Virus record (IMG/VR): IMGVR_UViG_3300008448_000114
Coordinates: 1 to 53,958 of that record
Reading direction: 5' to 3' (one strand)
Origin: a virus
Taxonomy: Duplodnaviria > Caudoviricetes
DNA length: 53,958 bases
The notes beneath the pieces are model-generated. The model made no database searches. It saw only the letters and a program-made list of their open reading frames with translations, and was not told where the DNA came from. Shown here in pieces: positions 7,958 to 51,113 of the stretch. Position numbers and translations under genes: made by a program. Position 1 is the first letter of the stretch. Each line of letters opens with the position of its first letter.

Positions 7958-10900
7958 TTACCTTCCTCCACCACCTCTACCGCTACCACCTCTTCCTCTT
8001 CCGCTTCCGCCACCTCTTCCACTACCTCCGCGGCTTCCTTTTTTACCTCCACTTTCTCCAGGCTCAAAAAACATCGTAAATCCTCTGCGCGTTTTCTTTT
8101 CTTGTTTTCTTTCTTCTTGAACAACCTCAGGCCTTTGCTCTTTAAGTATTTTAGTTCCAATATTTCTTAGGTCTCCACTCACCATATTTAAGAAAAACCC
8201 GAATTTCCCACCTATCATCATATTGGCAAATATGTACCCGTAAGCAGTAAGCCCTGCTGCAATAGCCGTCTCTTTGCTGTCAACTTTAGTGTCTTCACCT
8301 GATGCAGCATAGTATCTGCGTATATCGTTAACTGTTGTAGATAACCCGTGAATTGCAGATATTCCCGAGAACGAATTAACCAAATCTTCCCATCCCTTTG
8401 TTGGCTCTTCAGCACTATAGAAAGCTCTTATTGCCTCGTCATACGTCTTGCCTCCATAAATCTCAATAGGTCTTACGTTGTACATATTAAACCAAGACGC
8501 TTCTTTCTGCCTCATCTGCATCATAGCCTTTTTCCTTTGACGCTTATCCATCGTCAATAACCTCTCAGTAGCACCTTCTTTGTACATGTAAAATGCTGCC
8601 ATCCCTAATGCTGTCCTCCAAAAGAAACTTGTTTGAGGGTCTATTGCTGTTGACGCTATGCCATTAATTATAACTTCATTTACAGCTTTACTTTTAGCTT
8701 TAAGACCAGTCTTTATTGTTTCAATATACTTGTCCCATCCCTCTTTCTTGTCAAGTTCTTTAATCTTGTTTTCAACTGCTTTTGGGTCGTCATCATCTCC
8801 TGCCGCAGCATATACCGCTGCTGCCGTGCTTAGATACAGCACACCCATGTAAGACCTGAAAATAGAATAGGTTATTGACGGAACTATACCCTCAAGGACA
8901 GCCCTTGTTAAGTACTCGGCTCTTTTACCTAAAGAAAGGCCGCTTCTAGTTGAGAAGGCAAGCTTTATGTATGAGTTATACAACTGATGCTGGGTAGTTG
9001 GATACCCTTGAAGAAACCCTGTTAGAATAGCTAAAGGGTTATCTTTTGCAAGAGATATTTTACGTTTATCAGTATCAAACATATTCCTGATTCCTCTACC
9101 TAAGAACGGAGCTAAAAGCTGTTTTCTAAGAGGCTGCCTTGTAAATGAAGGCAAGGAGAATTGTCTGTCAGTAAACGAATCGGCTACCGAAGAAGCTTGA
9201 AGTACAGCATCCATATTAGATGCTCTGTAAACGCCTCTCTCATCTTTAAACTTTTGATGGTCTAAATACTCGCCTGTTATACGCTTAAACGCTTCCTCAA
9301 ACCTTGACATCCACCCGTGTTTCTTAACAGCCATATCCTGCCATGACGCTACTCTTTGCTGTCTTTGTAATTCCTCAGGAGTTTTCTTAAATTCATACAG
9401 GAAGTTATCAGCATACAAAGACATTACCTTATAGACAGGAGAGCCTGTCAAGTTAGCTATCTCTACATAGTCGTCCCATTTGTACGTTCCTGTATCTGTA
9501 GTATATCTTGATTTTTTAGGAGAAAGAAGTTGCAATATCTGATTTCCAAACTTTTTATTTTCAAAACCTAATGCAGACGTAAGTTTTCCAATATTTGCAG
9601 GGAAGTCGGCAAACAGCTGTCTTGTTACAGATATAAGCCATACCCTTGCAGCAAACGACTGAGCAGAACTCATCAGCCTAAAAGTATATCCAAAGTCATC
9701 ATTTACTACCCTTTCATTATGTGACAGATTAGCCTTAAGTCTTTCTGTAAGATTTTTATCAACACCTTCAAGATACGCAGCAGAGAACTCATTAACATCC
9801 TTAGCTGTCTTTACATCGTTGATAGCATCACCAAGACCTTTTATCTGCTGAAGGAATGGCATTACCTCTACCATTAGATTCAATGCCTTCATATTATGAA
9901 GGAGGACTTTGTTTGCGTCAAGGTCTATCGTTCCAGTCTCTCCTGACCGTGATATGGTCTGCCCCTTATCAATACCAAGATTTGAGAACTGGCCATTTAG
10001 GTACGCCATAGGGTCTGTTACCTCTGTTACTGTCTTATCCCCGTAAACTCTTATTGGGAAATAGTTTTTAACAGAAGCTCCCATATTGCCTACTATAACC
10101 TGTGCAGCCTCAAATGTTTCTCTATTTTGATTGATATGCTCTCTCCATCCGGCTAATCCTTCTTTTTGCTTATCTGTAAGCAAGTCCATAAGCTTACCCT
10201 CTGTCAGGTCTTTAAGCGTAGTTGTGCCTCCATTCGTAAGGGCAGCATAAGCTATCGCATCCATAAACTTATTGTTGTTTCCTTCAAGAGATTTAAAGGA
10301 TACGCCACCCTTAGTGAAGTAATCGAACATCGTACCTTCCATGAACGTTACCCCTTTCTCTCCAGCCTTAACTTCAAATATGTTCCTCTGAAGAACTCTG
10401 TCAATAATCTGAGCAGGGTTATTTGAGATATGGTCTATCTGATGGGCAACAATAGCTGCCATCCTTACCGATATATCATTCAAGAATGAAGCAGCACGAC
10501 CTTCTCTTAATTTGTTCCTAAGACTCATTCCAAGTATTGAGCCGGACACATCGTATGTCTTCAGAACTTGACCTATCGCCTTTTTGATGGTTGCATGGTT
10601 GCTTTTATCAGAAAACGCAATCATTGCCGTTTGAAGCTGACCAAGTTTTGATTGAGTCTTAACCATAGCGGCATCAATAGATGCAGCCATAGGGCCAAAG
10701 ATTTCTCTTTCAAGGTATCCCATATTAAGGCGGTCAAATTCGTTATACAACTCGTAATCAAGTGCTGTTATCTTTAGAAGGTCTAAATTACGAGATATGG
10801 CATCAGCCGAAGGTGTTGCTCCCTCTACATCAGTAAACGTTCTTGCAAAGTTTCTGAAAGCATTTTGTACAAAACCTGTTAATCCTGTTGCTGTTATTTC

Positions 10901-13900
10901 ATTTCTTCTTGCAGCAATTTCAGTACCCCACTTGTATCCACCATCTCTTTGTTTCCATCTTAATGCTTTAACATACTCGGTATATACCATATTGCTATAG
11001 TTTCCATAGTCGTACACCTGAGATAGCGCAGACGACAGGCTAAGCATATTTGCCGGACTTAAATTGCTTAAGTAATCATCCGACAGAGACGTCATAAAGC
11101 TAAGGAACTGCTGATATAGCACTCCGTTTGGTATTTTATTTCTTATATCGGAAAGCTCATCTGCTAGCTCTGTTTTTATCTTACCTACAAGAGCTGTTGT
11201 TTCTATTTTAATATCCTGCTCTTTATCAGCAATTATTCTGTTTATATCCCCTAAGTCTGTAAGCATCAGTACACCATACTGTTGCATGATGTCTGCTTGT
11301 TGCTGTGGAGTAAGCGCGGATATATTGTTCTTTCTTTCTTGTACATCTTCAACAGCTTTTTTAAGCTCCATCATCTTCTTGTAGTCAAGCATTGACAAAG
11401 TCTGCGTATTAGCCTTATTTATAAGGTCTTTTATTTTAGTCAACAGACTCTTATGCTCGTCGGCTATTTTTTGCTGATTAGACGGAGATATTGAATTAAG
11501 TATATCTATCGCATCTTGTATTGACCCTAATTTTAGAGCAACAATATCTTTGATGTGTCCGTTTAGTTTTGACAATTCCTCAAGAGATGCACTGCTATCA
11601 GGAAGTTCAGATAAAGGGAATCCAAGTATAGCTTTTACCTTATCAAAATACTCTCCAGAATACTTTGTAGATGAAGCTGTTTCAAGTCTGTCAAATGACT
11701 TTTGCACATCAGCAAGAACTTTTTTTCTGTATGCTTTTTCTACGACTTTTGATATTTCAGTAGCTCCTTTATCTACTGCTGTCATTATATCGTCTCTTGA
11801 GAAAATATTATCATTTAAGTCTTTGATAATTGCTTTTATCTGCCCTGTAGTAAGTTGAGCTCCTCTTCCATATCTATTTTGGAAATCTTTAAGTATCAAC
11901 TTAACAGCATCTTCAATCTTTTTAGCTCTGTCTTTTACATCCTTTATAGCACGTATCTGATTGGATACAGCATTTTTAATCCATTGAGAACTGGTCATAT
12001 TAACCATATCCTCTCCTTCAAACATTTGTCTATTAGCAGCAGGGAATGAAGCCCTTACGGCATCAGAAGCGATAGCAGGAGCAAGGCTCATCATGTCTAT
12101 CCAGGACACTCCGGCAGGAACAGTTCCGTTTGCATACATCCTGTCAATGGATGCTTTTACCTGACCAAGTACGGTATCGTATGCCTGTTTTGCTGTAGTC
12201 TTTGTTCTGCTGCCTACATTTGCATTTGCTATATTTTGAGCCGCCTGATTTGCGCCAGTTACAATAGCTTGGGTGCTTGGGGACGCAAATGCTTGGCTTA
12301 TCCTGCGCTGTCTTGCTGCCGCTTGCTCTGCTATCTTGCGCTCATTATACGCCTCTCCTACATAATTCTCTATTTGCTTCTGTACAGCATTATTATTGAA
12401 CTTTCCTGTTGCATTTGCTATAACAGCAGCAGATACTTCTGATGTAGCTATAGTTCTTGCTTCTTCAAGTGTTCTGCCTTTAGACAGCTCTCTTTGCATT
12501 ACAGCATTAGCAAGGTCAATCATTTGAGACTTAAATGATGGCTCTTGCTGTCTTGCCATGAATTGAGTTTGCTGCTCTATCTCCACAGCGTTCTCATCAA
12601 ATACCACATAATTGGACCCTCTTGATGTTGCTGATGTTGCTCCACGAGATATGCTTTCTGCTGGATATTTTATACCATCAATCCCGTTTTCAAGAAGTAA
12701 TAATGACGCCTCCTTATCGCTACCAATAGTTCTAGACAACTGTAAATATATGTTTTCTCCAGTTGTTTTTAATCCTGGCGTGTCTTCTGTTTTAAATCTA
12801 TTTTTAAATCCATCAACTTTTTTATCTATCTTTTCAATTATATCATTAAATCCTTCCTTATCCCACTCCAGCCAATTATATTCAGATGGCTGTTTGCCTT
12901 TATGCAGTGTAACATCATATAGAGAACCTCCTTCTTTAATAGAATACCTGCCTGATTTAAAGTCGTTTATTACATCCTCAAGCGAGTTTAATCTATCGTT
13001 CTTTATCTCATCTGTCCATGAAGTGTCTTCTATTACTTGTTTATGGTCTTCTAGGCTTTTAAGTATTTTGTTTTTATCAAAACCTTGATAAAGCCCAACT
13101 GAAACTTTATAAAGTCCTTCTCCTTCATTATATCCTTTTTTATAAGCACCAATTGTCGCATACAATTCATCATCAACTTCTTTCCCATCTTTTAATAAAT
13201 TACTTGAAGATAATGTCCTCCTATAAGTTTCTGCAATATCTTTTACATCCGTAAAGTATAAACCCCATCCAAAAGCCTGCACTCCTTCGCCTGTTCCTAT
13301 CTTTTCTGTAGTAAACTTACCAAAGCTATAAGGGCTTCCGTGATATGCTTTTACCTCAAACAGCTTATCCCTGTCCGACATCTTATTGAAAGTAACAGCC
13401 TCTCCTGCAAGTAATGATGCGTTGGCTCGGTTAAGGAACTCATCAAGCGTAAGCAGGTCTAACTCTACCTTGCTAAGATTAAATATTCCTACATACTGAG
13501 ACAGCTTACCTATCAACCTCCTTAACCAGTTTCTAAACCCTTGCTTCTGCACCTCATTAAAAAACTGCTCTCCTCTGTCACCAATAGCGGTAGCCAAAGC
13601 CTCGTTCTCCATCTCTTCAGTAGATAATCCTTCATACAACGGGTCTGCTTGCAGCTTATCCATGTATTCACTATCACGAATCAGCTCACGACCACGATTG
13701 TAAACCTCAGGAGCAATCTCCTTAGCAGCATTCAACCACAGATGCCCGAACTCATGAATAGGCGTATTATAGTTAGCGTAGTCAGGATTCAGATACACGT
13801 CACCATTCAATACCCTACCATAAACCACACCACCCTTCGTCATCAGGTCCCTTGCAGCTTCATCTTTTAATGCTGCCTGGAAGCCTTTCTTATCCATTAT

Positions 13901-16900
13901 AACCTTGACATTAGGGAATGCTTTTTTAAGCCTATCTGTAAGCGTTTTAACGGCCTTTTTATTTGCTGTATTTGCAGGTGCGTTGGATTTGTTAATCGCA
14001 TCAATTAAGGCGTTTCTTGCCTCTACTACGCGATTATTTGCTTCTGATATGACAGGAGGTATAACAGGAATAGGAGCTGCGTAATTAGTTCCAGTCATCC
14101 ATTGTTTAACCTTGTCAACAACTTGTTGCCCCATCTGCCTAACAGCACGCTCTTCTCCTTCTGTTACCTGCTGAGCCAGTTCATCCATTAACTGAACTTC
14201 CTGACCAGGATTTATTGTCCTTGTATAGTTCTGTATTACGGGAGTATTGTCGGGGAGTCCTGTTATTTCTTGGACTGCTTGCTGCGCTTGGCTGCCGAAA
14301 TTGCGATTGCGAGCATCTGCTGCCTGCTGCGTGGTTTGCCCGACGCCCCCTTCTCCTTGCCCGATTTTTTGTTGTCCTTGCTCAACTCCCGTAGGTTGTA
14401 TGAGATTGCTTGGTTGACCGCCTTCTTGCTGCGGCCTTGTGCTGATTTCAGTGGCATATTGTTGTGAATTTAAGTAACGTGATTTTAATGTTTCAAGGTC
14501 ATTTAACCTTTGTGTAAGATTTTCTACATCTGCCATCCTGTTAGAGTAAGGCATATCATTCTGTAAGGCAAACTCATAATCTACTTTAGCCTTCTCTATC
14601 AGGTCTTTAGTGTTCTGTATTTTGGTAGCTAAAAACATTTCAGGATTAGATACAATAGACGCTTCATTAGCCCTAGCAGCATTGCTGTTCTTCTCATTAG
14701 CTACGTACAAATCCCTTAATCTGTTAGAGAAACTCATCCTGTCAATAGGAGTCATATCCACCTCTTCAGCTTGAGCTGTTTGCTTTTGTTCTTCTGTCCT
14801 TGCATCAAGGATGCCATTATTCCCTATCATCGTATCAGACAAGCCAAAATAGTCGTAGATAAGCGTCTTCATTTCAGTAGGCTCAATAGCAAACTGCTGT
14901 TCAGCATATTCTACATCATTTAAAGCCTTATCAGCGTTCTGCATATATGTCTCTATTACTTGAGCAGACGCTTCAGGAGACACCTGTCCGTTCTCTACCA
15001 TTGTGCTTATCTCCTTAGCCTTAACAATATTATCAAGAGCTATTGTCCTTTGTTGCATCGTAGTTTTAGGACTAAAGTTCATCGACATAGCCGTAGGAAG
15101 CCATACGTCTCTTACCATCTCATAAACAGGAAGATTAAGCTCGGACTCTTTTATATTGCCGGACTCTACCTCCTGAATGACTTTAAGTATAGGTGCTATG
15201 TTTTCTTTTTGAGTAAGAGCAGATATAACAAAAGCCTCTTCCTTTGTAATGTTAAGTTCTTTGTTTTTGACAAGCTGTTTCCTTATCTCCTCTTGTGCCG
15301 TATTCCTGTTCTTCATATTTTGGGCAAGTTTTGTACCTCCCCTAAATATGGCAGATGTGCCTATCATTGTAATCAACATATCAAGACTCTGCTGTGCCGT
15401 AAATACCGTAGGATTAAACGTAGCATTCGTCATTGTGTTGAACGTGCTTTGCAATATTGCATTGCCTTTATCTGCAACCTCTTCTTCTAAATATTCAAGA
15501 GAGCCTGACTTTAAAACCCTTCCTGTTCTTTTTGCAAATAACCTGGCATACTCTTTAAATGCTTGAGCCCTTGTTTGCGGAGACATGATACGCTTAATCA
15601 AGTCTTTCGTAAGAACAGACTTACCCCTTCTTAATCCAAGAAGAGATGTTTCTCTTGTAATCATTTCGGAGAAAAATTCAATCCCATTATAAAGCTGAGA
15701 ATAAACTATCTGTTCTATCCCCGTTAATCCAGCATCAGCAGCTTCTCTCATGGCTCTACCTGTTCCTGTTGCAGCAAGATACGCATATCCTCCTGCCGGT
15801 CCACCTGCGATAAAAGCTCCTGAAAATGCCAGCATTTGAGGAAGGGCTTCTCCAATTTGTCCTACAATCTTTCCAGCATAACTATCAGCCTCTATATTTG
15901 TTTCAATCCTATTTTTATACTCTCTTATTGATGCTGATACGTTTGCAGCATTAGGGTTGTATCCACTCCAGTCAAAAGATGAAAGCTTATTGCCTGTTTC
16001 GCGAATACCTTCCATCATCCCTCTTATAGTATTTATAGACTTAATAGCAAATATTATATTTTTAGGAGTGCTTTTATTAAGTGTAGTTACATCCTGCGTT
16101 AATGGTGACAGCAAAGGAAAGCTGTACATATTAGTGTCGGTAAACTTGCTATTGTAGTTATCGTCAATCTCATGAAGTCGGTTTAACACAAATTTGCCTC
16201 TTTCGCTAAAAAGAGCACTTTCGTTAAATATCTTTAAACTTCCATTGTAAGAGTTTACCTTCTTTTCAAAGTCAGGCATATTCTCACTCAAAAATGCTTT
16301 AAGTTCTTTTTCAGGGAAAAGACTTTTAGCTCTTTTAGCTACCTGGTCAAGTTTTAATAACTGCTCATTTGTGCTTTCTATAACCTCTGGATTATTCAAC
16401 ATCAAATCCTTACCGGTAGTGTTTAAGAACTCAATATCGTCTGGCTTAAGGTCTGCATATCTATCTTTGTAGTTGCTCCCTTTCTCCATAAGGAACGACT
16501 TAAGTTTAATGTATCTTACAGCATCTCTAACGTTCTTATCATCGCTATTTTCAAGTGCATTGTATCCGTCATTTAACTCTTTAAGCGCAACTGTATATCC
16601 TGACTGATTATTTATCTTAAGTATTCCTGCTTCTATCAATGACTGGCTTATTTCAAGGTCTATTTTAGCGTCTTTAAAACCGCCTATAACTCCTTCTACT
16701 TCAGGAAGGAAATCTTTTAAAGTAGCATATATTGTTTCAATATCCTTGTTGTCAAGTTTTGTTTTAGCGGCATCTACAAGACTTGCCATGCCCTCTATGC
16801 TGTTAAGATACATGCCCTTTCTTCCGCCTGCCTCATCAAGTATCTGTTGCATAGCAGGTATAAGTTGAGGATTCTTTTTTACCTCAAGAGCAAGAACACC

Positions 16901-18337
16901 ATTATTTATCTTTTGAACTTCCTTACCAAGACCAGTACGCACAAGCTCCTTAAGTAAGAACTCGCCACCTTCAGCAGTTTTAGATAGTAGTGTAAATGGT
17001 GATGTCGCAATACCACCAACAGCCTCCAATAATCTTTCATACGCATCATCGTCTGATTTGCTTTGCTGTCTTATTTCTGCCCATTTCTGTTCAAATTCAT
17101 TTGTAAAGGTAGCCGCTGTCAATACCAACTTAAACCAGTCGGGTGTCTTTTTATCAGACATTAATCCTGTATAGGCAGAAGCAACATTATTCATTTGCTT
17201 GTTTCTATCATCTCCAAGCGTTTTTATCTTAATGTCGGCTTCAGCTCTTGTTAATGAACCTTCTGTTACTTGAGTCTCTATGTCAGATACTCGGTCATCA
17301 AAGTTTACAATTAAGTCGTAATCATATTTAATGGATATTGGCGTTACTTTTTTATAGTTTGCTACAGGAATAAACTGCCCTGTAGATTGGTCATATACTC
17401 CATCTATATCTTTAACTTTCTCTACAATCTTAACTTGCTTTCCTTCGCTGTTAAGTACCGGATTACCTTGCTCATCTACCTTGTTGGTAGCCCTATAATA
17501 CATAGGCTTTGCAAAAGGGGCCATTGTATTTGAATTATACCCATACAATGTAAACCCTCTGAATATGTCACCATCTTTTACTTTATCTTTTTCAAAAGCA
17601 TCTACAAATCCTTCAAATGTATTTATGCCTTTTTGATAGGTCTTCTGTGCCATATCCTCGTACTCAGGAACCGTGTCATCTCCCTGGTGAGTAGAAACCC
17701 TCTCCCATAACTCTCCATTCAATAAACGTCTCCATCTTTCAGTAGAAGCCTTTAGATTTCTTTGTACAATATAGTCAGTAGCCTTTACCTGCTTTATAGT
17801 AGGATTATTATCCTTTATGTAAGACATATTGGTATCTTTCTGATATGTCTCATATTCCTTTTTATACTTTTGTTCAATATCTCTTGTGCCTTGTCTTATT
17901 TGTCTATCCCTTCTTCTTTGGCTCTTTTTATCATTGCCTGGGTTGCGCTCAAAGGCCTGCTGTTGTAAAGTTTCTATTTCAGCGTCTTTCTGAACCTTTA
18001 ACTCTTCTGCCTTCTTTAACTTCTCTTCCTCTGTTGGAGGGTCAGGCAACTTCTCATTCTGTATTGTTTGTAAAGCGTCTTTAGGAAGCTCTGTATAAAC
18101 TTTGTCATCAACAACATAACCCTCTGCTTTCGTTTCTGTTGCTACAGGCTTTAATGACTGATAGATGTCCTTTGCCTGCTTGTCCTGCATGAAGGTTTCA
18201 TCTTCTTCTACTTTACCAAACTCTGTATTGGTAATAGAATCTAATTCAAATAAAGACGCTTCCGATGGTCCGACAAGAGGTTCTTGAATATCTTGTAATT
18301 CAGGATTGATGAATTGTTCGTTTAAGTCTTGAGTCAT
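7958..18337 (-). CDS. Giant polyvalent ejection (cargo) protein with zincin metallopeptidase and ADP-ribosyltransferase-like domains
   Basis: 3459 aa. HEFGH motif (13756-13742) followed by ENEALA; YHGS...IGTGEG.QAFGWGLYFT...DGIKY...NYVVFD block (~13350-12570); G/R-rich C-terminus. Follows the tail genes. Confidence 0.8.
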   Translation of the reverse strand: MTQDLNEQFINPELQDIQEPLVGPSEASLFELDSITNTEFGKVEEDETFMQDKQAKDIYQSLKPVATETKAEGYVVDDKVYTELPKDALQTIQNEKLPDPPTEEEKLKKAEELKVQKDAEIETLQQQAFERNPGNDKKSQRRRDRQIRQGTRDIEQKYKKEYETYQKDTNMSYIKDNNPTIKQVKATDYIVQRNLKASTERWRRLLNGELWERVSTHQGDDTVPEYEDMAQKTYQKGINTFEGFVDAFEKDKVKDGDIFRGFTLYGYNSNTMAPFAKPMYYRATNKVDEQGNPVLNSEGKQVKIVEKVKDIDGVYDQSTGQFIPVANYKKVTPISIKYDYDLIVNFDDRVSDIETQVTEGSLTRAEADIKIKTLGDDRNKQMNNVASAYTGLMSDKKTPDWFKLVLTAATFTNEFEQKWAEIRQQSKSDDDAYERLLEAVGGIATSPFTLLSKTAEGGEFLLKELVRTGLGKEVQKINNGVLALEVKKNPQLIPAMQQILDEAGGRKGMYLNSIEGMASLVDAAKTKLDNKDIETIYATLKDFLPEVEGVIGGFKDAKIDLEISQSLIEAGILKINNQSGYTVALKELNDGYNALENSDDKNVRDAVRYIKLKSFLMEKGSNYKDRYADLKPDDIEFLNTTGKDLMLNNPEVIESTNEQLLKLDQVAKRAKSLFPEKELKAFLSENMPDFEKKVNSYNGSLKIFNESALFSERGKFVLNRLHEIDDNYNSKFTDTNMYSFPLLSPLTQDVTTLNKSTPKNIIFAIKSINTIRGMMEGIRETGNKLSSFDWSGYNPNAANVSASIREYKNRIETNIEADSYAGKIVGQIGEALPQMLAFSGAFIAGGPAGGYAYLAATGTGRAMREAADAGLTGIEQIVYSQLYNGIEFFSEMITRETSLLGLRRGKSVLTKDLIKRIMSPQTRAQAFKEYARLFAKRTGRVLKSGSLEYLEEEVADKGNAILQSTFNTMTNATFNPTVFTAQQSLDMLITMIGTSAIFRGGTKLAQNMKNRNTAQEEIRKQLVKNKELNITKEEAFVISALTQKENIAPILKVIQEVESGNIKESELNLPVYEMVRDVWLPTAMSMNFSPKTTMQQRTIALDNIVKAKEISTMVENGQVSPEASAQVIETYMQNADKALNDVEYAEQQFAIEPTEMKTLIYDYFGLSDTMIGNNGILDARTEEQKQTAQAEEVDMTPIDRMSFSNRLRDLYVANEKNSNAARANEASIVSNPEMFLATKIQNTKDLIEKAKVDYEFALQNDMPYSNRMADVENLTQRLNDLETLKSRYLNSQQYATEISTRPQQEGGQPSNLIQPTGVEQGQQKIGQGEGGVGQTTQQAADARNRNFGSQAQQAVQEITGLPDNTPVIQNYTRTINPGQEVQLMDELAQQVTEGEERAVRQMGQQVVDKVKQWMTGTNYAAPIPVIPPVISEANNRVVEARNALIDAINKSNAPANTANKKAVKTLTDRLKKAFPNVKVIMDKKGFQAALKDEAARDLMTKGGVVYGRVLNGDVYLNPDYANYNTPIHEFGHLWLNAAKEIAPEVYNRGRELIRDSEYMDKLQADPLYEGLSTEEMENEALATAIGDRGEQFFNEVQKQGFRNWLRRLIGKLSQYVGIFNLSKVELDLLTLDEFLNRANASLLAGEAVTFNKMSDRDKLFEVKAYHGSPYSFGKFTTEKIGTGEGVQAFGWGLYFTDVKDIAETYRRTLSSSNLLKDGKEVDDELYATIGAYKKGYNEGEGLYKVSVGLYQGFDKNKILKSLEDHKQVIEDTSWTDEIKNDRLNSLEDVINDFKSGRYSIKEGGSLYDVTLHKGKQPSEYNWLEWDKEGFNDIIEKIDKKVDGFKNRFKTEDTPGLKTTGENIYLQLSRTIGSDKEASLLLLENGIDGIKYPAESISRGATSATSRGSNYVVFDENAVEIEQQTQFMARQQEPSFKSQMIDLANAVMQRELSKGRTLEEARTIATSEVSAAVIANATGKFNNNAVQKQIENYVGEAYNERKIAEQAAARQRRISQAFASPSTQAIVTGANQAAQNIANANVGSRTKTTAKQAYDTVLGQVKASIDRMYANGTVPAGVSWIDMMSLAPAIASDAVRASFPAANRQMFEGEDMVNMTSSQWIKNAVSNQIRAIKDVKDRAKKIEDAVKLILKDFQNRYGRGAQLTTGQIKAIIKDLNDNIFSRDDIMTAVDKGATEISKVVEKAYRKKVLADVQKSFDRLETASSTKYSGEYFDKVKAILGFPLSELPDSSASLEELSKLNGHIKDIVALKLGSIQDAIDILNSISPSNQQKIADEHKSLLTKIKDLINKANTQTLSMLDYKKMMELKKAVEDVQERKNNISALTPQQQADIMQQYGVLMLTDLGDINRIIADKEQDIKIETTALVGKIKTELADELSDIRNKIPNGVLYQQFLSFMTSLSDDYLSNLSPANMLSLSSALSQVYDYGNYSNMVYTEYVKALRWKQRDGGYKWGTEIAARRNEITATGLTGFVQNAFRNFARTFTDVEGATPSADAISRNLDLLKITALDYELYNEFDRLNMGYLEREIFGPMAASIDAAMVKTQSKLGQLQTAMIAFSDKSNHATIKKAIGQVLKTYDVSGSILGMSLRNKLREGRAASFLNDISVRMAAIVAHQIDHISNNPAQIIDRVLQRNIFEVKAGEKGVTFMEGTMFDYFTKGGVSFKSLEGNNNKFMDAIAYAALTNGGTTTLKDLTEGKLMDLLTDKQKEGLAGWREHINQNRETFEAAQVIVGNMGASVKNYFPIRVYGDKTVTEVTDPMAYLNGQFSNLGIDKGQTISRSGETGTIDLDANKVLLHNMKALNLMVEVMPFLQQIKGLGDAINDVKTAKDVNEFSAAYLEGVDKNLTERLKANLSHNERVVNDDFGYTFRLMSSAQSFAARVWLISVTRQLFADFPANIGKLTSALGFENKKFGNQILQLLSPKKSRYTTDTGTYKWDDYVEIANLTGSPVYKVMSLYADNFLYEFKKTPEELQRQQRVASWQDMAVKKHGWMSRFEEAFKRITGEYLDHQKFKDERGVYRASNMDAVLQASSVADSFTDRQFSLPSFTRQPLRKQLLAPFLGRGIRNMFDTDKRKISLAKDNPLAILTGFLQGYPTTQHQLYNSYIKLAFSTRSGLSLGKRAEYLTRAVLEGIVPSITYSIFRSYMGVLYLSTAAAVYAAAGDDDDPKAVENKIKELDKKEGWDKYIETIKTGLKAKSKAVNEVIINGIASTAIDPQTSFFWRTALGMAAFYMYKEGATERLLTMDKRQRKKAMMQMRQKEASWFNMYNVRPIEIYGGKTYDEAIRAFYSAEEPTKGWEDLVNSFSGISAIHGLSTTVNDIRRYYAASGEDTKVDSKETAIAAGLTAYGYIFANMMIGGKFGFFLNMVSGDLRNIGTKILKEQRPEVVQEERKQEKKTRRGFTMFFEPGESGGKKGSRGGSGRGGGSGRGRGGSGRGGGGR
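14263..14457 (-). CDS. Small basic protein nested out of frame in the giant gene
   Basis: MPLKSAQGRSKKAVNQAISYNLREL...GKPRSRQQMLAIAISAAK, with leader TAAATTCACAACAAT-ATG resembling the capsid gene leader. Confidence 0.6.
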   Translation of the reverse strand: MPLKSAQGRSKKAVNQAISYNLRELSKDNKKSGKEKGASGKPRSRQQMLAIAISAAKRSKQSKK

Positions 18338-40513: not shown

Positions 40514-40912
40514 TTACTTGTCCTTACGAGGCAAATACCACAACTGAGGCCACATACGTACCGTTCCGGAGCTGATAAATGTAATACGCCAGTTCGTACA
40601 TACAGGAGTAATCTTACTGATAAATGCTGTATTTGTAACCGCATTTGTAAGGGCAATGCTGTCAGTAGAGATATAGTTCACCCCATCAAGGCTTTGAGCA
40701 AACACTACCTTGCCGGCAGCAGTACCTGATACGCGACTCAGCACAGGTTGAAATATAACTCCATTCAAAGAACTGGACAGCGTAAGGTTTACAACAGCCG
40801 TATCTGCGTTGATTAAGCTGTCAACACCTACAAATGGTACTGAAATAGCTGCCTGGCTATAACAGAAATTAATTGCAAAAAGTAATACAATAGTGGAAAA
40901 AATCTTTTTCAT
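40514..40912 (-). CDS. Exported beta-sandwich protein
   Basis: Signal peptide MKKIFSTIVLLFAINFCYSQ; TATATTTG box at 40934-40927. Confidence 0.65.
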   Translation of the reverse strand: MKKIFSTIVLLFAINFCYSQAAISVPFVGVDSLINADTAVVNLTLSSSLNGVIFQPVLSRVSGTAAGKVVFAQSLDGVNYISTDSIALTNAVTNTAFISKITPVCTNWRITFISSGTVRMWPQLWYLPRKDK

Positions 40913-40955
40913 TTAAAATGTTTTTACAAATATAATGGAAAATACTTTACCAAAT

Positions 40956-41010
40956 AAAAGTCCCCCCAAGTAGAAACAAGGAGGGAACAGCTTACTTTTT
41001 TATAGACACA
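40956..41010 (-). ncRNA. Cassette F: stand-alone sRNA candidate
   Basis: Full promoter TTTG-N20-TACATTTG, ~25-nt arm, hairpin TCCCTCC-TT-G-TTTCTA-C-TT-GGGGGGA, CTTTT. Confidence 0.55.
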
Positions 41011-41012
41011 AT

Positions 41013-41076
41013 CAAATGTACAACAAAAGTGTTGATAAAACAAATTTGGATAAAATATTTTCTGTTACTAACTTTG
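41013..41076. promoter_or_regulatory. Back-to-back promoters sharing palindrome CAAATTTG
   Basis: Plus: TTTG(41045-48)-N20-TAACTTTG(41069-76). Minus: TTTG(41044-41)-N20-TACATTTG(41020-13). Confidence 0.7.
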
Positions 41077-41081
41077 GTACA

Positions 41082-41415
41082 TGGTATTAAAGCAATTTTA
41101 TATCAAGACACCGAACCCTCTCAGGTTCGTACAGCTTTCCAGAGATAGAGATTTATCCTATCAATCTAAAGCTCAGAAGTCGGATGGTAGCTGTCACCAC
41201 AACATAGACAGTAAGATTTCTCCGATAGTGTCGCAAATGGTTCAGAAACATAAAGACCCTTAGAGGTAACAGCTGTTAAGGATAGAGTAACCCTTACAGG
41301 ATATCAGGGCTGTTACGAAGGTGTACTAACCACGGTTAGCAACGTACGGTCTAAGGCATAAATTCTGAACTAATGTAAACGAAATTCATCCCGTATCTAA
41401 GGGGATACTATGCGC
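41082..41415 (+). ncRNA. Candidate ~330-nt multibranch ncRNA
   Basis: Nested stems GTTCAGAA/TTCTGAAC, AGACC/GGTCT, GTAACAGC/GCTGTTAC, TCGGA/TCCGA, AGCTTT/AAAGCT, CGAACC/GGTTCG. Confidence 0.55.
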
Positions 41416-42019
41416 CTACACCAATACCGTATCTAATAACACCCCATCAAAGCTGTTATTAATACCATCACCCGGTTAGCAGCATCACTACACATAAACC
41501 CCCTAAATTCACCACCCCTCCGCACACATAACAGCTACCCCACACATTAGGTTTTTGTAAAAAAACCGGGTAGGTACGCTGTTAAACAATGGGATTGTTG
41601 GAATTTAAGTGAAATACATGAAGGTTCAGGATAACCCCCTCCCCTCTACCAACATTCCGAATCGGGGAAACGGATTCCGCAGACTGTGTACCTCGTTTTG
41701 CTTCGTTTCGGTTATGCTTCCCCGTTAGCTTCATGCTACTTTGTTAGCTGAAAAAAATCAAACTGATTTTGTATGGCTGATATGTCATGCGGGATGTTTT
41801 GTTATCCCCCCCGCCTAATTAGTACTTTCGTTCTTTTGCATCTCATTAATTTATTAGTGTTTTATTTTACGGGATGTTATGCCATGTCAGGAAGTTATTT
41901 TTTTATGTTTGTTTATTGGATAAATACAGCTAATTATTTTAGTATTATTTGCTAAATAATTTAGTTAGATATTTTCTAATAAAACAGCTTAAAATTTAGA
42001 AAACATTTAATGGCTTTTA

Positions 42020-42052
42020 TTTGGAATGTAGTACATATACTCCTTATCTTTG
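42020..42052 (+). promoter_or_regulatory. Early promoter
   Basis: TTTG-N21-TATCTTTG. Confidence 0.75.
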
Positions 42053-42089
42053 TATCGTTAATTTAATCACTCAAAACAAAACAAATTTT

Positions 42090-42557
42090 ATGAGCACACA
42101 AAAAAACGCAGTTAATCAGGAGCAAACAATTAGCGAAGGTAAAAAAGTAATTAACTTGACGGGCAAAGATGGTAAATTATCGGGCAAAGGTTTGACAGCT
42201 AAACAGGAACGCGAAGCAAAAAAAGCCCTCCGCAAAGAAACGAACGAAGCCAGGAAGGAAGCCATAAAGGAGCGCAAAGATGAACAAAAAACGTTATCTT
42301 ATCAATTTAAGGAGCTTCAAAAGTACGGGCAAACATACGCGGATAAATTAAGCAAAGAAACGGGAGCAAATGTTACCCTTGCCAATATTCAGGCGTTAAA
42401 ATATCGGGACTTTTTGCCTTTCCTTACCATGTCCGAAGATTATTCAAACACTGCGAACGGCTGGACCTTTGCCCGTCTGTTGTCTGTTGTTGCCCGTTAT
42501 TACAGAAACGAAGCAAAAAAGCAAATTACAGATTCTATCTTATTGGATATAGAATAA
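42090..42557 (+). CDS. First early gene, K/E-rich hypothetical protein
   Basis: Start moved to ATG 42090 (MSTQKN), downstream of the promoter and A/C-rich leader. Confidence 0.7.
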   Translation: MSTQKNAVNQEQTISEGKKVINLTGKDGKLSGKGLTAKQEREAKKALRKETNEARKEAIKERKDEQKTLSYQFKELQKYGQTYADKLSKETGANVTLANIQALKYRDFLPFLTMSEDYSNTANGWTFARLLSVVARYYRNEAKKQITDSILLDIE

Positions 42558-42563
42558 GACAAG

Positions 42564-43443
42564 GCACGCCCGTATACGTAAAAACGTACAGATAAAATTT
42601 TGCTTATCTACGGGTGCAATATGTCGACAAAAAATGAAGATAGTCGACAAGCATAGGCAAAAAATAACCATACATGAGGGTAAAAAATTCAGTGAATTTC
42701 CTCAGGTAGCTTCACAAGTTGTGAACGGGCAAAGATATGTCAATGTCATCTTCAGTTCTTTGACATAACAGAATAAAGTAAGGGTATTAAGTACTTATGT
42801 ATGAACGGGTAAAAGTTCAGTGAACTCCGTTTATATTCGGCAAAGTTTGCCCAATAATCTATTTAATATCTGTAAAGCATAAATTTACTTTATTTAGCGT
42901 TAAGGGTTAACTACATTCTATAAAAACATAATTTAATTATGTTCAGGAAAGGAAAGGTATTTTTATACCTTATCAATCTTTGTGGTAAGTCGATACCAAG
43001 ACCCAAACCTTAAACAAGTTTGCTAATTGATTCGCTCCGGTCGTTTGACTTTTATAGATTAAAGATTATTTGTAGTTAACACAAAGTAGCCCTGCATGAT
43101 GCTGATGCAGTAAAGTTTTTCTGTTTAGGCGAAGGTGCATGAAAGTGTACCTATAAACGAACTATAAAACAGATGTAAGGATTGCCAAAAATATATCTCG
43201 ATTTATCATTTATATATCCCCACACACCGGACAGCCGGAAGAGTCTGCATAAAACAGATTCGACAATTAAGGCATGAAAGTACTTTGCTACTTCGATTTA
43301 TTCATTTAGTAAAGGCGTGACTACTTTCATAAAGGTACAAATGTCTGCAAAAAAACAACCAATATTTAAGTAATGGCAAGGGCAAAGTTTGCCCTATACC
43401 TATACTCGCCATGATATTAAACAAATGGTATTGCTTAAATATT
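42564..43443 (+). ncRNA. Large structured ncRNA or ncRNA array
   Basis: ORF-free and densely paired: long-range 9-14-bp stems, a kissing loop, a GAAA tetraloop and five AGT-triloop hairpins. Confidence 0.65.
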
Positions 43444-43458
43444 TTTAATAATAACAAA

Positions 43459-43514
43459 GGGAAATGGCATGGTGCATGCAGTAATGTAGTCCGGTTCGAT
43501 TCCGGGCTTTCCCC
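43459..43514 (+). ncRNA. Mini tRNA-like element lacking an anticodon
   Basis: GGGAAA/TTTCCC acceptor-like stem, GTCCGG-TTCGATT-CCGGGC T-arm, GCA-TGG-TGC mini D-arm, TGCA-GTAA-TGTA in place of the anticodon arm. Confidence 0.6.
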
Positions 43515-43542
43515 TATTTATTCACTCTAAACACTAAACACA

Positions 43543-43728
43543 ATGAAAGGGACAAAAGTATGCTCGGCAAAGCCCGGCAAAAATGTACGCATGAACGTAC
43601 ACACAAAGCGTGAAGCCATACAGCTCATGCAGAAACTGACAGCACTCGGAAAGGACATAAAAACTTATGTCCGCGAAGTGCAAATCAGACAAGAAATCAA
43701 ATTAATAAACCTAAACATTCATCCATGA
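43543..43728 (+). CDS. Hypothetical early protein
   Basis: 61 aa with an A/C-rich leader. Confidence 0.6.
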   Translation: MKGTKVCSAKPGKNVRMNVHTKREAIQLMQKLTALGKDIKTYVREVQIRQEIKLINLNIHP

Positions 43729-43829
43729 AAAAAAGAAAATGTACTGACGCTGAATTACAGCGCAGACTGGAATTTTGCGTAGGAGTAATAATATCATTAT
43801 TAGCCATCGCAATATTGCAAAATATATAA
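43725..43829 (+). CDS. 34-aa single-TM peptide
   Basis: MKKRKCTDAELQRRLEFCVGVIISLLAIAILQNI, ATGA overlap with the upstream gene. Confidence 0.5.
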   Translation: MKKRKCTDAELQRRLEFCVGVIISLLAIAILQNI

Positions 43830-43838
43830 ATGTAGTAT

Positions 43839-44141
43839 ATGGAAGGATATAATAAATGGGCAAATGAAATGAATGTAGGTGCATACTATGTACCGCCCAC
43901 ACCTCCGGCAAATGGTCACTACTTTGACGCAAAAGTTTATACTAAATCTAAAAAACAAAATATAAGCATCGTAAAACGCTTATTAAAGCTACTCAGCTTT
44001 TTTCTGTTCACTCTCATCATGTCATCCTGCTCACGTTACGTTAATTCCGGAGGTGGAGGATGCGGAGTATGGCATCCAAAGAAATACTCCGGAGCTGCGC
44101 CTAAGATGCGCTCAGGGGCGAAACTTGTATCCATTCACTAA
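43839..44141 (+). CDS. Membrane protein / possible lipoprotein
   Basis: Internal KRLLKLLSFFLFTLIMSSC lipobox-like segment. Confidence 0.5.
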   Translation: MEGYNKWANEMNVGAYYVPPTPPANGHYFDAKVYTKSKKQNISIVKRLLKLLSFFLFTLIMSSCSRYVNSGGGGCGVWHPKKYSGAAPKMRSGAKLVSIH

Positions 44142-50432: not shown

Positions 50433-50636
50433 ATGACAGCAGAACAAAAAGCACATAGCCTCGTTAATCAGTTTATGCTGATGCCTCCGACAAAGCTGTC
50501 CGACTATTCAAAGATATACATGCCGACCGCCAAGATATGTGCCTTAAAGGTAGTAGATGAGGTACTTGAGACATGCAGTATAGGAGATACGTATGAGTTC
50601 TATGAGCAGGTTAAAGAACACATTGAAAAGATATAA
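50433..50636 (+). CDS. Small phage protein
   Basis: MTAEQKA..LV...AK.CAL.VVDEVL...FY.QVK..IEKI. Confidence 0.65.
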   Translation: MTAEQKAHSLVNQFMLMPPTKLSDYSKIYMPTAKICALKVVDEVLETCSIGDTYEFYEQVKEHIEKI

Positions 50637-50703: not shown

Positions 50704-50705
50704 AT

Positions 50706-50798
50706 CCCGGAAGGCGTATGGAAAGCCGACAATGAGGGTGAACGTGGCCCGTCTGTAAACTCAGTAAATTGTATCAGGTTCGACTCCTGATTCCGGGG
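50706..50798 (+). ncRNA. tRNA-like element with expanded, non-canonical anticodon arm
   Basis: CCCGGAA/TTCCGGG, TCAGG-TTCGACT-CCTGA, GGC-GTATGGAAA-GCC, and ACAAT/ATTGT enclosing 34 nt. Confidence 0.6.
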
Positions 50799-50843
50799 CA
50801 TTTTGGTACTTATAGTACCAATACAAGTCAAAAAATAAACTAA

Positions 50844-51113
50844 ATGGACTATATAATCAATGACCAAGACAAATCAATAGAGCATAACGGAGTAAAGGTA
50901 TTCCCTCCAAGAAAGGAGTTTATGATGTTCTGTTATCTTTTAAACAATCCTAACAGAATCATAAGCAGAGATGAGTTGCTGAAAAATATATGGGATGACG
51001 GCATCATTGTAGAATCAAGAACAATAGACGTACACATGAGGAGGATTAGGGAAAAGCTACCTCACGCACCAATAATAACCAGGAGGTGCTACGGATATAT
51101 GTATAAAAAATAA
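50844..51113 (+). CDS. Stand-alone OmpR/PhoB-type winged-helix DNA-binding domain
   Basis: KEF....YLLNNPNRIISRDELL..IW.....ESRTIDVHMRRIREKL.....ITRR..GY; no receiver domain. Confidence 0.85.
   Translation: MDYIINDQDKSIEHNGVKVFPPRKEFMMFCYLLNNPNRIISRDELLKNIWDDGIIVESRTIDVHMRRIREKLPHAPIITRRCYGYMYKK

Follow-up and report, generated by a model that had tools for sequence, protein, structure and literature searches.

GOLLD and ROOL are large ornate RNAs of phages and prophages that are often located beside tRNAs. Such RNAs are rare in bacteria and phages, and each new class helps to address their role. Elements of tRNA shape are also used to process longer transcripts. For example, the long RNA MALAT1 ends with mascRNA, where cleavage by RNase P makes the 3' end of the long RNA and RNase Z frees the small element. 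Polycistronic transcripts are punctuated by tRNAs in mitochondria, and in phage T4 a tRNA cluster is transcribed with small stable RNAs. Here we analysed IMG/VR virus record IMGVR_UViG_3300008448_000114 (Duplodnaviria; Caudoviricetes), whose 53,958 bp, judged 75% complete, are called the window below. We describe a structured region at 42558-43542 of this window, directly downstream of a small protein gene (gene 1). It shares with the large ornate phage RNAs a length of more than 500 nucleotides (nt), covarying helices and junctions, the absence of coding sequence, a phage genome and a tRNA-type element. The structured feature itself is real and belongs to a large phage RNA of a new family, into which a tRNA mimic is built. 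Our preferred reading, with a probability of roughly 0.6, is that 42558-43514 encodes a large, modular, structured RNA on the plus strand, with conserved ends, a mosaic middle and a 3' tRNA mimic which would serve as processing and 3'-end signal.

A preliminary description, made from the window sequence without database searches, had interpreted the region as a new large RNA or an array of early decoy RNAs, and had named comparison with Rfam, including GOLLD and ROOL, as a check. No Rfam family reached its gathering score in the window or in six relatives (L002, L004, L007, L008, L009 and L035), and only chance-level matches, GOLLD not among them, were found at E <= 10 in 40900-44000. The interpretation as a new large RNA stands on this result, on compensatory changes and on a 5' domain that outconserves the neighbouring gene. 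The accompanying argument, that G-U pairs and a GNRA loop favour the plus strand, is weak, and the most informative part of the region, the 3' tRNA-like element, was missing from that description. No report of this RNA was found in literature searches. A 2023 screen of IMG/VR gives 8,495 candidate structures of 29-151 nt (PMC10690425), and pieces of the region may be among them.

The arrangement of a gene 1 homologue, 609-985 nt of non-coding sequence and a small gene occurs in 8 other IMG/VR contigs. One relative was obtained by a protein-anchored search and more by DNA-pattern scans and blastn. A core pattern of 15 specified bases matched 45 stretches, 8 of which are true relatives, and 37 have no further similarity. 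Near-identical pairs were merged (L004 with L028/L006; L009 with L021), so that the 9 virus records gave 7 distinct sequences, namely the window and the six relatives named above. Further viral scans found no additional member of the region and one contig with only region U, a second non-coding region described below. One genome contig scan gave 0 matches, and the other 3 matches, to metagenome-assembled genomes, were 20-21-nt chance matches only. No DNA match to the region was found in GenBank phages, and no related loci were found with the 534-amino-acid (aa) neighbour protein as query. DNA of the region is present in 20 metagenome runs of 16 studies, which are of freshwater, lake and "fungus" origin. 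In contig IMGVR_UViG_3300008448_000086 (59 kb), the RNA region spans both contig ends, with the core motif at the end (L028) and the tRNA mimic at the start (L006), which suggests a circularly permuted or terminally redundant assembly.

As stated in the preliminary description, no open reading frame (ORF) of at least 60 aa exists in the 985 nt of the region. The longest start-to-stop ORFs are one of 51 aa on the minus strand (43302-43457) and one of 44 aa on the plus strand (42634-42768). Across the 7 regions there are 147 stop-to-stop frames of at least 25 codons, the longest with 73 codons; similarity between homologues is spread over all frames and both strands, and the frame shifts from one homologue to another. 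The sole long frame shared by the window and L002 has a protein identity of 62% vs a DNA identity of 89%, and the ATG of the 44-aa ORF is missing in L002. Small conserved peptides were considered as well and dropped after this comparison. From its frames, the region is judged to be non-coding.

For the 5' domain, positions 42555-42775 of the window were aligned with L002 and L004 and folded by RNAalifold. The consensus contains 61 pairs in 11 helices, with standard pairs in 97.8% of cells and 20 pairs changed on both sides. None of 500 column shuffles reaches any of five measures, and when partners are slid by 1-3 columns, 27-40% of cells are paired and 0-4 pairs are compensatory. The first junction begins 10 nt past the stop codon of gene 1. 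It had been read as a three-way junction before, and is indeed recovered both in the minimum free energy (MFE) fold of the window and in the three-homologue consensus, with compensatory changes (Table 1). In the model, 42738-42741 may pair with 42558-42561 and close the 5' domain. The identity of this domain to L002 is 89% (85.6% for gene 1), and its identity to L004 is 78.6% over 201 nt, while gene 1 is alignable there over 48 nt only. Measured by these identities, conservation of the 5' domain is higher than that of the protein gene next to it.

The 5' sequences of L007, L009 and L035 are unrelated to that of the window. The first 112 nt after the stop codon were folded independently as single sequences in all 7, and a closing stem around two hairpins was obtained in 5 of them, with the next hairpin in 6. 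The z-scores of these seven folds are -3.9, -4.1, -3.8, -0.4, -3.8, -2.9 and -4.2.

On the 3' side, the invariant CUAUACUCGCC strand and hairpin Pb are common to all 7 sequences, and the Pb loop has 12-13 nt and is of the GAUGUUAAACAA type. At pair 4 of Pb, 2 sequences have A-U and 5 have C-G, and at pair 1, G-U is found 6 times and G-C once. When each 94-95-nt core was folded alone, the junction composed of P2, Pa, the single strand and Pb was formed in 6 of 7; in the L002 core, P2 forms and the interior differs. P2 is the 14-bp stem singled out in the preliminary description. In the window it is 93% complementary, it is kept in L008, and across the homologues it is built from four unrelated sequences, with shuffle support in 5 of 7: among 2000 shuffles of the upstream partner, the stem was matched or beaten by 0 in the window, 1 in L008, 41 in L004, 77 in L035 and 93 in L002. 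A pseudoknot between the middle segment of the mimic and the UCGCC strand was tried and rejected; by eye, the complementary pentamers are out of register between homologues.

The structured part is completed by the tRNA mimic at 43459-43514, in which 24 nt (17-27 nt across six sequences) take the place of the D and anticodon arms. Its acceptor stem is stacked on the T stem to form a minihelix with a 7-nt T loop, a single-stranded 5' leader and an unpaired discriminator, C43514; the 3' acceptor strand directly follows the T stem, and no CCA is encoded. The consensus of T loops is UUCRANY, and the T-loop word GGTTCRANTCC occurs 2 times in the window vs 0.10 expected. Pairs of the mimic were counted in six sequences by a positional parse in a script; MAFFT misregistered 2 of the 6. 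By this count, 69 of 72 cells are paired, acceptor pair 5 is A-U in 4 sequences and C-G in the other 2, three pair types occur at each of T-stem pairs 2 and 3, and both stems of the mimic covary. In 6 of the 7 sequences, the MFE fold contains the acceptor stem as well as the T stem. In L035, a 7-bp stem stacked on a 5-bp hairpin is kept, with an 8-nt loop, a longer middle arm and no T-loop consensus, which suggests that selection acts on the shape of the minihelix, the feature read by RNase P. The mimic of L004 is directly followed by a hairpin and T6, as expected for a 3'-terminal module.

Known identities of this element were considered and rejected. ARAGORN made 0 tRNA calls in the window and 9 family loci, and it calls the true tRNA of the unrelated phage L005. 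The best match within the Rfam tRNA clan was tRNA-Sec, at 15.7 bits vs a gathering score of 47 bits. Accepted by neither tool, and lacking D and anticodon arms, the element is not a tRNA. Transfer-messenger RNA (tmRNA) is excluded by the absence of ARAGORN or Rfam detection, the absence of a tag reading frame and acceptor pair 3, which is G-C and not G-U in 6 of 6 sequences. A bacterial Y RNA was dismissed with no TROVE match in the 75%-complete record and no Rfam match, and a tRNA fragment of a phage attachment site (attP) with no Phage_integrase match in this record and with both acceptor strands present and covarying.

A second tRNA-like element was observed at 50705-50798 on the plus strand (94 nt). 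Its acceptor stem has 7 bp, the loop of its T arm is UUCGACU, and about 60 nt separate the two. The element sits in a 207-nt gap between the ORFs at 50433-50636 and 50844-51113, and a hairpin (50806-50820) follows it. ARAGORN did not call this element, and the tRNA-Sec model gave 13.4 bits (E 6.3). The C-terminal part of the small plus-strand ORF at 50844-51113 resembles, by eye, a winged-helix DNA-binding domain of OmpR/PhoB type.

Between the conserved ends, the region is a mosaic. The long-range stem 42771-42781/42885-42895, pointed out before, exists and is kept in L004. Two other structures of the preliminary description, the stem 42906-42915/43071-43080 and a GAAA hairpin at 43133-43152, were found again in the MFE fold of the window, and both lie in window-specific sequence. 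Positions 42906-43080 are absent in L002 and L004, and in one metagenome contig 42895-43080 is replaced by 34 nt (joint 42894>43081), as in L004. Identity to L004 is 100% over the 32 nt at 43081-43112, and 43160-43542 has an identity of 86.5% to L008.

AGU-triloop hairpins with stems of at least 5 bp are found 5 times in the 985 nt of the region vs 15 times in the other 53 kb (6 plus, 9 minus), and they make up 5 of the 13 triloop hairpins of the region. Among the relatives, L004 has 4 and L002 has 2; with stems of at least 4 bp, none is present in L007 and L035, and one each in L008 and L009. The window has two copies of a bulged GUAAAA...CAGUG motif vs 0.17 expected, and both are inside the region. 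Both the enrichment of AGU hairpins and the leader-like loops are sequence hints at protein binding, and neither is family-wide. Loops of the CAGUG type resembling iron-responsive elements were considered and dropped, with no Rfam match.

Table 1. Coordinates of predicted structures and flanking features in the window
Feature	Position	Strand	Evidence
Promoter-like site of Bacteroidota type (TTTG, 21 nt, TATCTTTG)	42020-42052	+	Pattern count; just before gene 1
Gene 1, basic helical protein of 155 aa	42090-42557	+	Homologue always directly upstream of the RNA region
5' three-way junction: closing stem 42567-42573/42610-42616, hairpins 42575-42588 and 42590-42609	42567-42616	+	Helices 2-4: 18 pairs, 100% of cells paired, 2 compensatory
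Hairpin B: 7-bp stem, A-rich loop of 14 nt	42622-42649	+	Helix 5: 4 of 7 pairs compensatory; also predicted for 6 of the 7 homologues
Bulged hairpin 1: lower and upper stems with a GUAAAA bulge between them, AGU triloop	42671-42708	+	Helices 7-8: 9 of 15 pairs compensatory
Hairpin E, AGU triloop in L002 and L004	42709-42730	+	Helices 9-10: 4 of 9 pairs compensatory
Hairpin F (42743-42747/42762-42766), conserved 14-nt loop	42738-42766	+	Helices 1 and 11
Domain closed by 11-bp long-range stem; holds bulged hairpin 2 (42800-42835) and AGU hairpin (42839-42851)	42771-42895	+	Window vs L004: 44 pairs, 5 compensatory
Optional inserted domain, 10-bp closing stem	42906-43080	+	MFE fold of the window
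Terminator-like hairpin (6-bp stem, 7-nt loop), then U-rich run	43092-43125	+	Terminator-like score, sequence only
Hairpin with CUCGAUUUAUCAUUU loop	43191-43217	+	By eye; loop kept in L008 and L004 on differing stems
Hairpin with CUUCGAUUUAUUCAUU loop, resembling the 5' leader of the flanking genes	43283-43314	+	L008 comparison (pairs 127-134/151-158); ATTTATTCAY at 43296 and 43516
3' core three-way junction: P2 43361-43374/43430-43443; Pa 43379-43395; invariant strand CUAUACUCG 43400-43408; Pb 43408-43412/43425-43429, loop GAUAUUAAACAA	43361-43443	+	Per-sequence folds, 7 sequences
U/A-rich single-stranded linker, presumed 5' leader of the mimic	43444-43458	+	U5-7 run and AUAA-type sequence in 7 of 7
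tRNA mimic: acceptor 43459-43465/43507-43513 (7 bp), T stem 43490-43494/43502-43506 (5 bp), T loop UUCGAUU 43495-43501, discriminator C 43514	43459-43514	+	
Leader UAUUUAUUCAC..., then small gene 2 (43543-43728, 61 aa)	43515-43728	+	Resembles the sequence after the gene 1 promoter

The strand of the RNA was considered separately. The plus strand of the region folds at -234.2 kcal/mol (z -3.69), and 0 of 20 shuffles are as good. The plus strand is favoured because the mimic reads as T loop and acceptor stem only in this direction, and because it carries the flanking genes and the promoter-like site. It is also favoured, modestly, because at variable pairs G-U is found rather than A-C: pair 1 of Pb is G-U in 6 of 7 sequences as given above, and the 5' domain has 8 G-U vs 2 A-C cells on the plus strand; these G-U counts are biased because the structures were predicted on this strand. 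We infer from these sequence features that the RNA is the plus strand.

A number of results weigh against the preferred reading. The minus strand of the region folds as well as the plus strand (-239.0 kcal/mol, z -3.95), and the consensus fold of the 5' domain on the minus strand has -58.9 vs -57.6 kcal/mol on the plus strand, with 18 compensatory pairs. Among 14 modules, only 6 are more stable on the plus strand, as are 4 of the 7 whole regions, so that energies do not separate the strands and do not bear out the argument of the preliminary description from G-U pairs. In L007 and L009, P2 has 5 contiguous pairs each and is no better than shuffles (1664 and 1559 of 2000). When the 7 cores were aligned by sequence, RNAalifold found helix Pb and no other, so P2 and Pa rest on per-sequence evidence. 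The MFE fold of the L002 mimic is without the T arm. The middle third of the region is unique to the window, and its fold is that of a single sequence; more generally, a small family of 7 distinct sequences limits column-wise covariation. Judged by its sequence, the terminator-like hairpin at 43092-43110 could stop transcription from gene 1 short of the 3' domain. Finally, no RNA run is among the 21 runs listed for the sequence of the region, and the contigs of four runs that were compared with it are all DNA; they show mosaicism and no expression.

The alignments show a conserved multi-domain structure and the anatomy of the tRNA mimic. The region would be made as a continuation of the gene 1 transcript, because no promoter-like site lies inside it: transcription from 42020-42052, most likely by the host RNA polymerase, would run on through the region. 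The mimic would be read by host tRNA-processing enzymes, with RNase P cutting before G43459 and RNase Z or 3' trimming acting after C43514, possibly followed by addition of CCA. We propose this processing because the acceptor and T stems form a 12-bp minihelix, L035 retains the minihelix without the T-loop consensus, the leader is A/U-rich and single-stranded, and L004 has its hairpin with T6. A stable non-coding RNA with a defined 3' end would be released, and the downstream mRNA would then start with UAUUUAUUCAC..., a leader like that of a primary transcript. The released RNA would act in trans, and our leading guess is that it serves a protein or the ribosome as scaffold or decoy. The mimic thus makes precise predictions, namely cuts by RNase P and RNase Z at 43458/43459 and 43514, then CCA addition. 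There is a published precedent: in vitro, RNase P cleaves a bacterial Y RNA (YrlA) whose acceptor stem has 7 bp, and in vivo CCA is added to this RNA (PMC4201824).

Other explanations share part of this evidence. The decoy array of the preliminary description would consist of small RNAs or protein-binding hairpins that titrate one protein (the gene 1 product or a host RNA-binding factor), maybe split by an internal terminator-like hairpin. The AGU hairpins of the window, L004 and L002, the two GUAAAA...CAGUG motifs confined to the region, the complete conservation of the hairpin 43092-43110 in L004 and the constant adjacency of gene 1 all agree with such an array. We regard it as unlikely, however, since the AGU motif is not family-wide, the three long-range stems (closing 42771-42895, 42906-43080 and 43361-43443) and the junctions argue for larger domains, the region has no promoter-like site from which separate RNAs could start, and the gene 1 protein has no recognisable RNA-binding fold in Pfam, PHROG or Foldseek PDB searches. 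The lack of an own promoter-like site can be read in another way, as a sign of a single transcription unit in which the region is a cis-acting untranslated region: a 3' untranslated region that shields the gene 1 mRNA from 3' exonucleases, an insulator that controls the amount of transcription or translation reaching gene 2 and beyond, or both, with the mimic only as a processing site and no function in trans. The first junction 10 nt after the stop codon, the resemblance of the leader after the mimic to the gene 1 leader, and the terminator-like hairpin after the mimic in L004 fit this proposal. But a multi-domain structure of 0.6-1 kb with invariant single-stranded motifs far exceeds the usual need of a stabiliser or attenuator, and the 5' domain is better conserved than the gene it would protect, which leaves this explanation improbable in our view.

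It seems very unlikely that the element acts as DNA, be it as an origin of replication, a hot spot of recombination, a set of hairpin promoters for a virion RNA polymerase or an attP with a tRNA fragment. The region does lie near the divergence point of two gene blocks, both strands fold equally well, and the sequence is mosaic between phages. However, G-U replaces A-U or G-C at covarying positions (in the counts of the 5' domain and Pb pair 1 given above), and a complete, covarying acceptor and T arm is unexpected of an attP fragment. No tyrosine integrase was found in the 75%-complete record, and the virion polymerase is only putative, since the 3459-aa ORF has no PHROG match. DNA hairpin promoters of the N4 type were dropped on the same ground and with host-type promoter motifs present. 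Least credible, and largely refuted, is a decaying tRNA pseudogene at the 3' end with the remainder as tolerated spacer with chance hairpins. Rejection of the element as a tRNA by ARAGORN and Rfam, and the true tRNA of the unrelated phage L005 with the same acceptor and T-arm words, would suit a pseudogene, but decay does not agree with covariation in both mimic stems, 20 compensatory pairs in the 5' domain and conservation that exceeds that of the neighbouring gene.

In the window, minus-strand genes, including portal, terminase and virion proteins, run up to 40912, and most large ORFs are on the plus strand from 42090 on. The terminase is 28-29% identical to terminases of Cellulophaga, Flavobacterium, Maribacter and Tenacibaculum phages; among the 87 matching records, none reaches 60% identity. 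The pattern TTTG-N18-22-TAnnTTTG, a consensus of Bacteroidota promoters, occurs 7 times in the window vs 1.67 expected, a count attained by 0 of 100 shuffles. All 7 copies lie outside 42558-43542, and a comparable promoter-like arrangement precedes gene 1 in L002, L008 and L007. We take the host as probably Bacteroidota-like because of these promoter motifs and the terminase relatives in Flavobacterium and Cellulophaga phages, and gene 1 would be transcribed by the host polymerase. From gene order and the host-type promoter, the timing would be "early". A 3459-aa ORF at 7958-18337 (minus strand), without a PHROG match at E <= 1e-5, could encode a virion-associated giant protein.

Homologues of gene 1 are present in all 7 distinct loci, with 28-84% identity to that of the window. 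The protein has no match in Pfam, PHROG or GenBank phages and no Foldseek PDB match at E <= 0.001; the pLDDT (predicted local distance difference test) of its AlphaFold2 (AF2) model is 69.7. In 4 of 7 loci, the leader 3' of the tRNA mimic resembles the post-promoter sequence of gene 1. The word ATTTATTCAY (one mismatch allowed) is found at 42061, 43296, 43516 and 51121 on the plus strand, at leader starts 20-30 nt before start codons and once in the loop of an RNA hairpin; genome-wide it is not enriched (13 seen vs 16.2 expected). Plus-strand start codons are preceded by A/C-rich leaders of the CTAAACA type without Shine-Dalgarno sequence.

Upstream of gene 1, a second conserved structured non-coding region, region U, was observed at 41045-41800 on the plus strand (core 41125-41410). 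Four sequences gave 72 predicted pairs, 23 of which are compensatory, and 23 G-U cells on the plus strand. Region U is 72-83% identical across relatives with gene 1 proteins of only 28-50% identity. It has a promoter-like site at 41045-41076 (plus), back to back with another at 41013-41044 (minus), and a terminator-like hairpin at 41766-41795; no Rfam match was found. By these sequence features, region U may be an independent RNA of about 700 nt.

Region U, together with the second mimic 7 kb downstream, suggests that tRNA-shaped punctuation and large RNAs are general in this phage group. A more far-reaching and improbable idea is that region U, at about 41083-41800, and the RNA described here (0.7-1 kb each) flank gene 1 as an "RNA cassette" that opens the rightward operon, and that they build a large particle similar to those of GOLLD and ROOL, with or without the gene 1 protein, whose CCA-tagged mimic docks on the host tRNA machinery (the ribosome, EF-Tu or tRNA-targeting defence nucleases). 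If so, it would be a new class of host-takeover or anti-defence RNA device. The preferred reading, a modular RNA released at its tRNA mimic, has useful traits of its own: a fixed place in the operon, marked by a single conserved protein; conserved and swappable domains that are separable; and its own anticodon-less mimic. It would also add to what is known of freshwater phages of Bacteroidota-type hosts, a group with almost no described regulatory RNAs.

Compared with known systems, mascRNA of MALAT1 is likewise a small tRNA-shaped element that ends a long non-coding RNA. However, it is a full cloverleaf of the eukaryotic nucleus, whereas the mimic described here belongs to a phage, has no anticodon arm, is followed by an mRNA and would be processed by proposed rather than known cuts. 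The tRNA-like domains of YrlA and tmRNA also combine acceptor and T arms without a decoding function. In the Y RNA, the mimic is internal to the Ro-binding stem, while here it is a 3' appendage, and no Ro60/TROVE gene was found in the record. As in tRNA punctuation, sites for RNase P and RNase Z would separate RNAs within one transcript, and the second mimic at 50705-50798 lies in another gap between genes of the same strand; the known cases use functional tRNAs, whereas both mimics of the window cannot decode.

The RNA differs from GOLLD and ROOL in that it matches neither Rfam model and has a different fold. It carries a built-in anticodon-less mimic instead of true tRNA genes, both of its ends are conserved around a variable middle, and it sits inside a protein-coding operon directly after a gene. 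Its host range appears to be of Bacteroidota type by promoter motifs and terminase relatives. On the other side, it is like them in its size of 0.6-1 kb, its many multi-stem junctions, its phage origin and its link with tRNA-type elements. GOLLD has a conserved and a variable half, with tRNAs sometimes in the linker, and the RNA described here likewise mixes well and poorly conserved parts.

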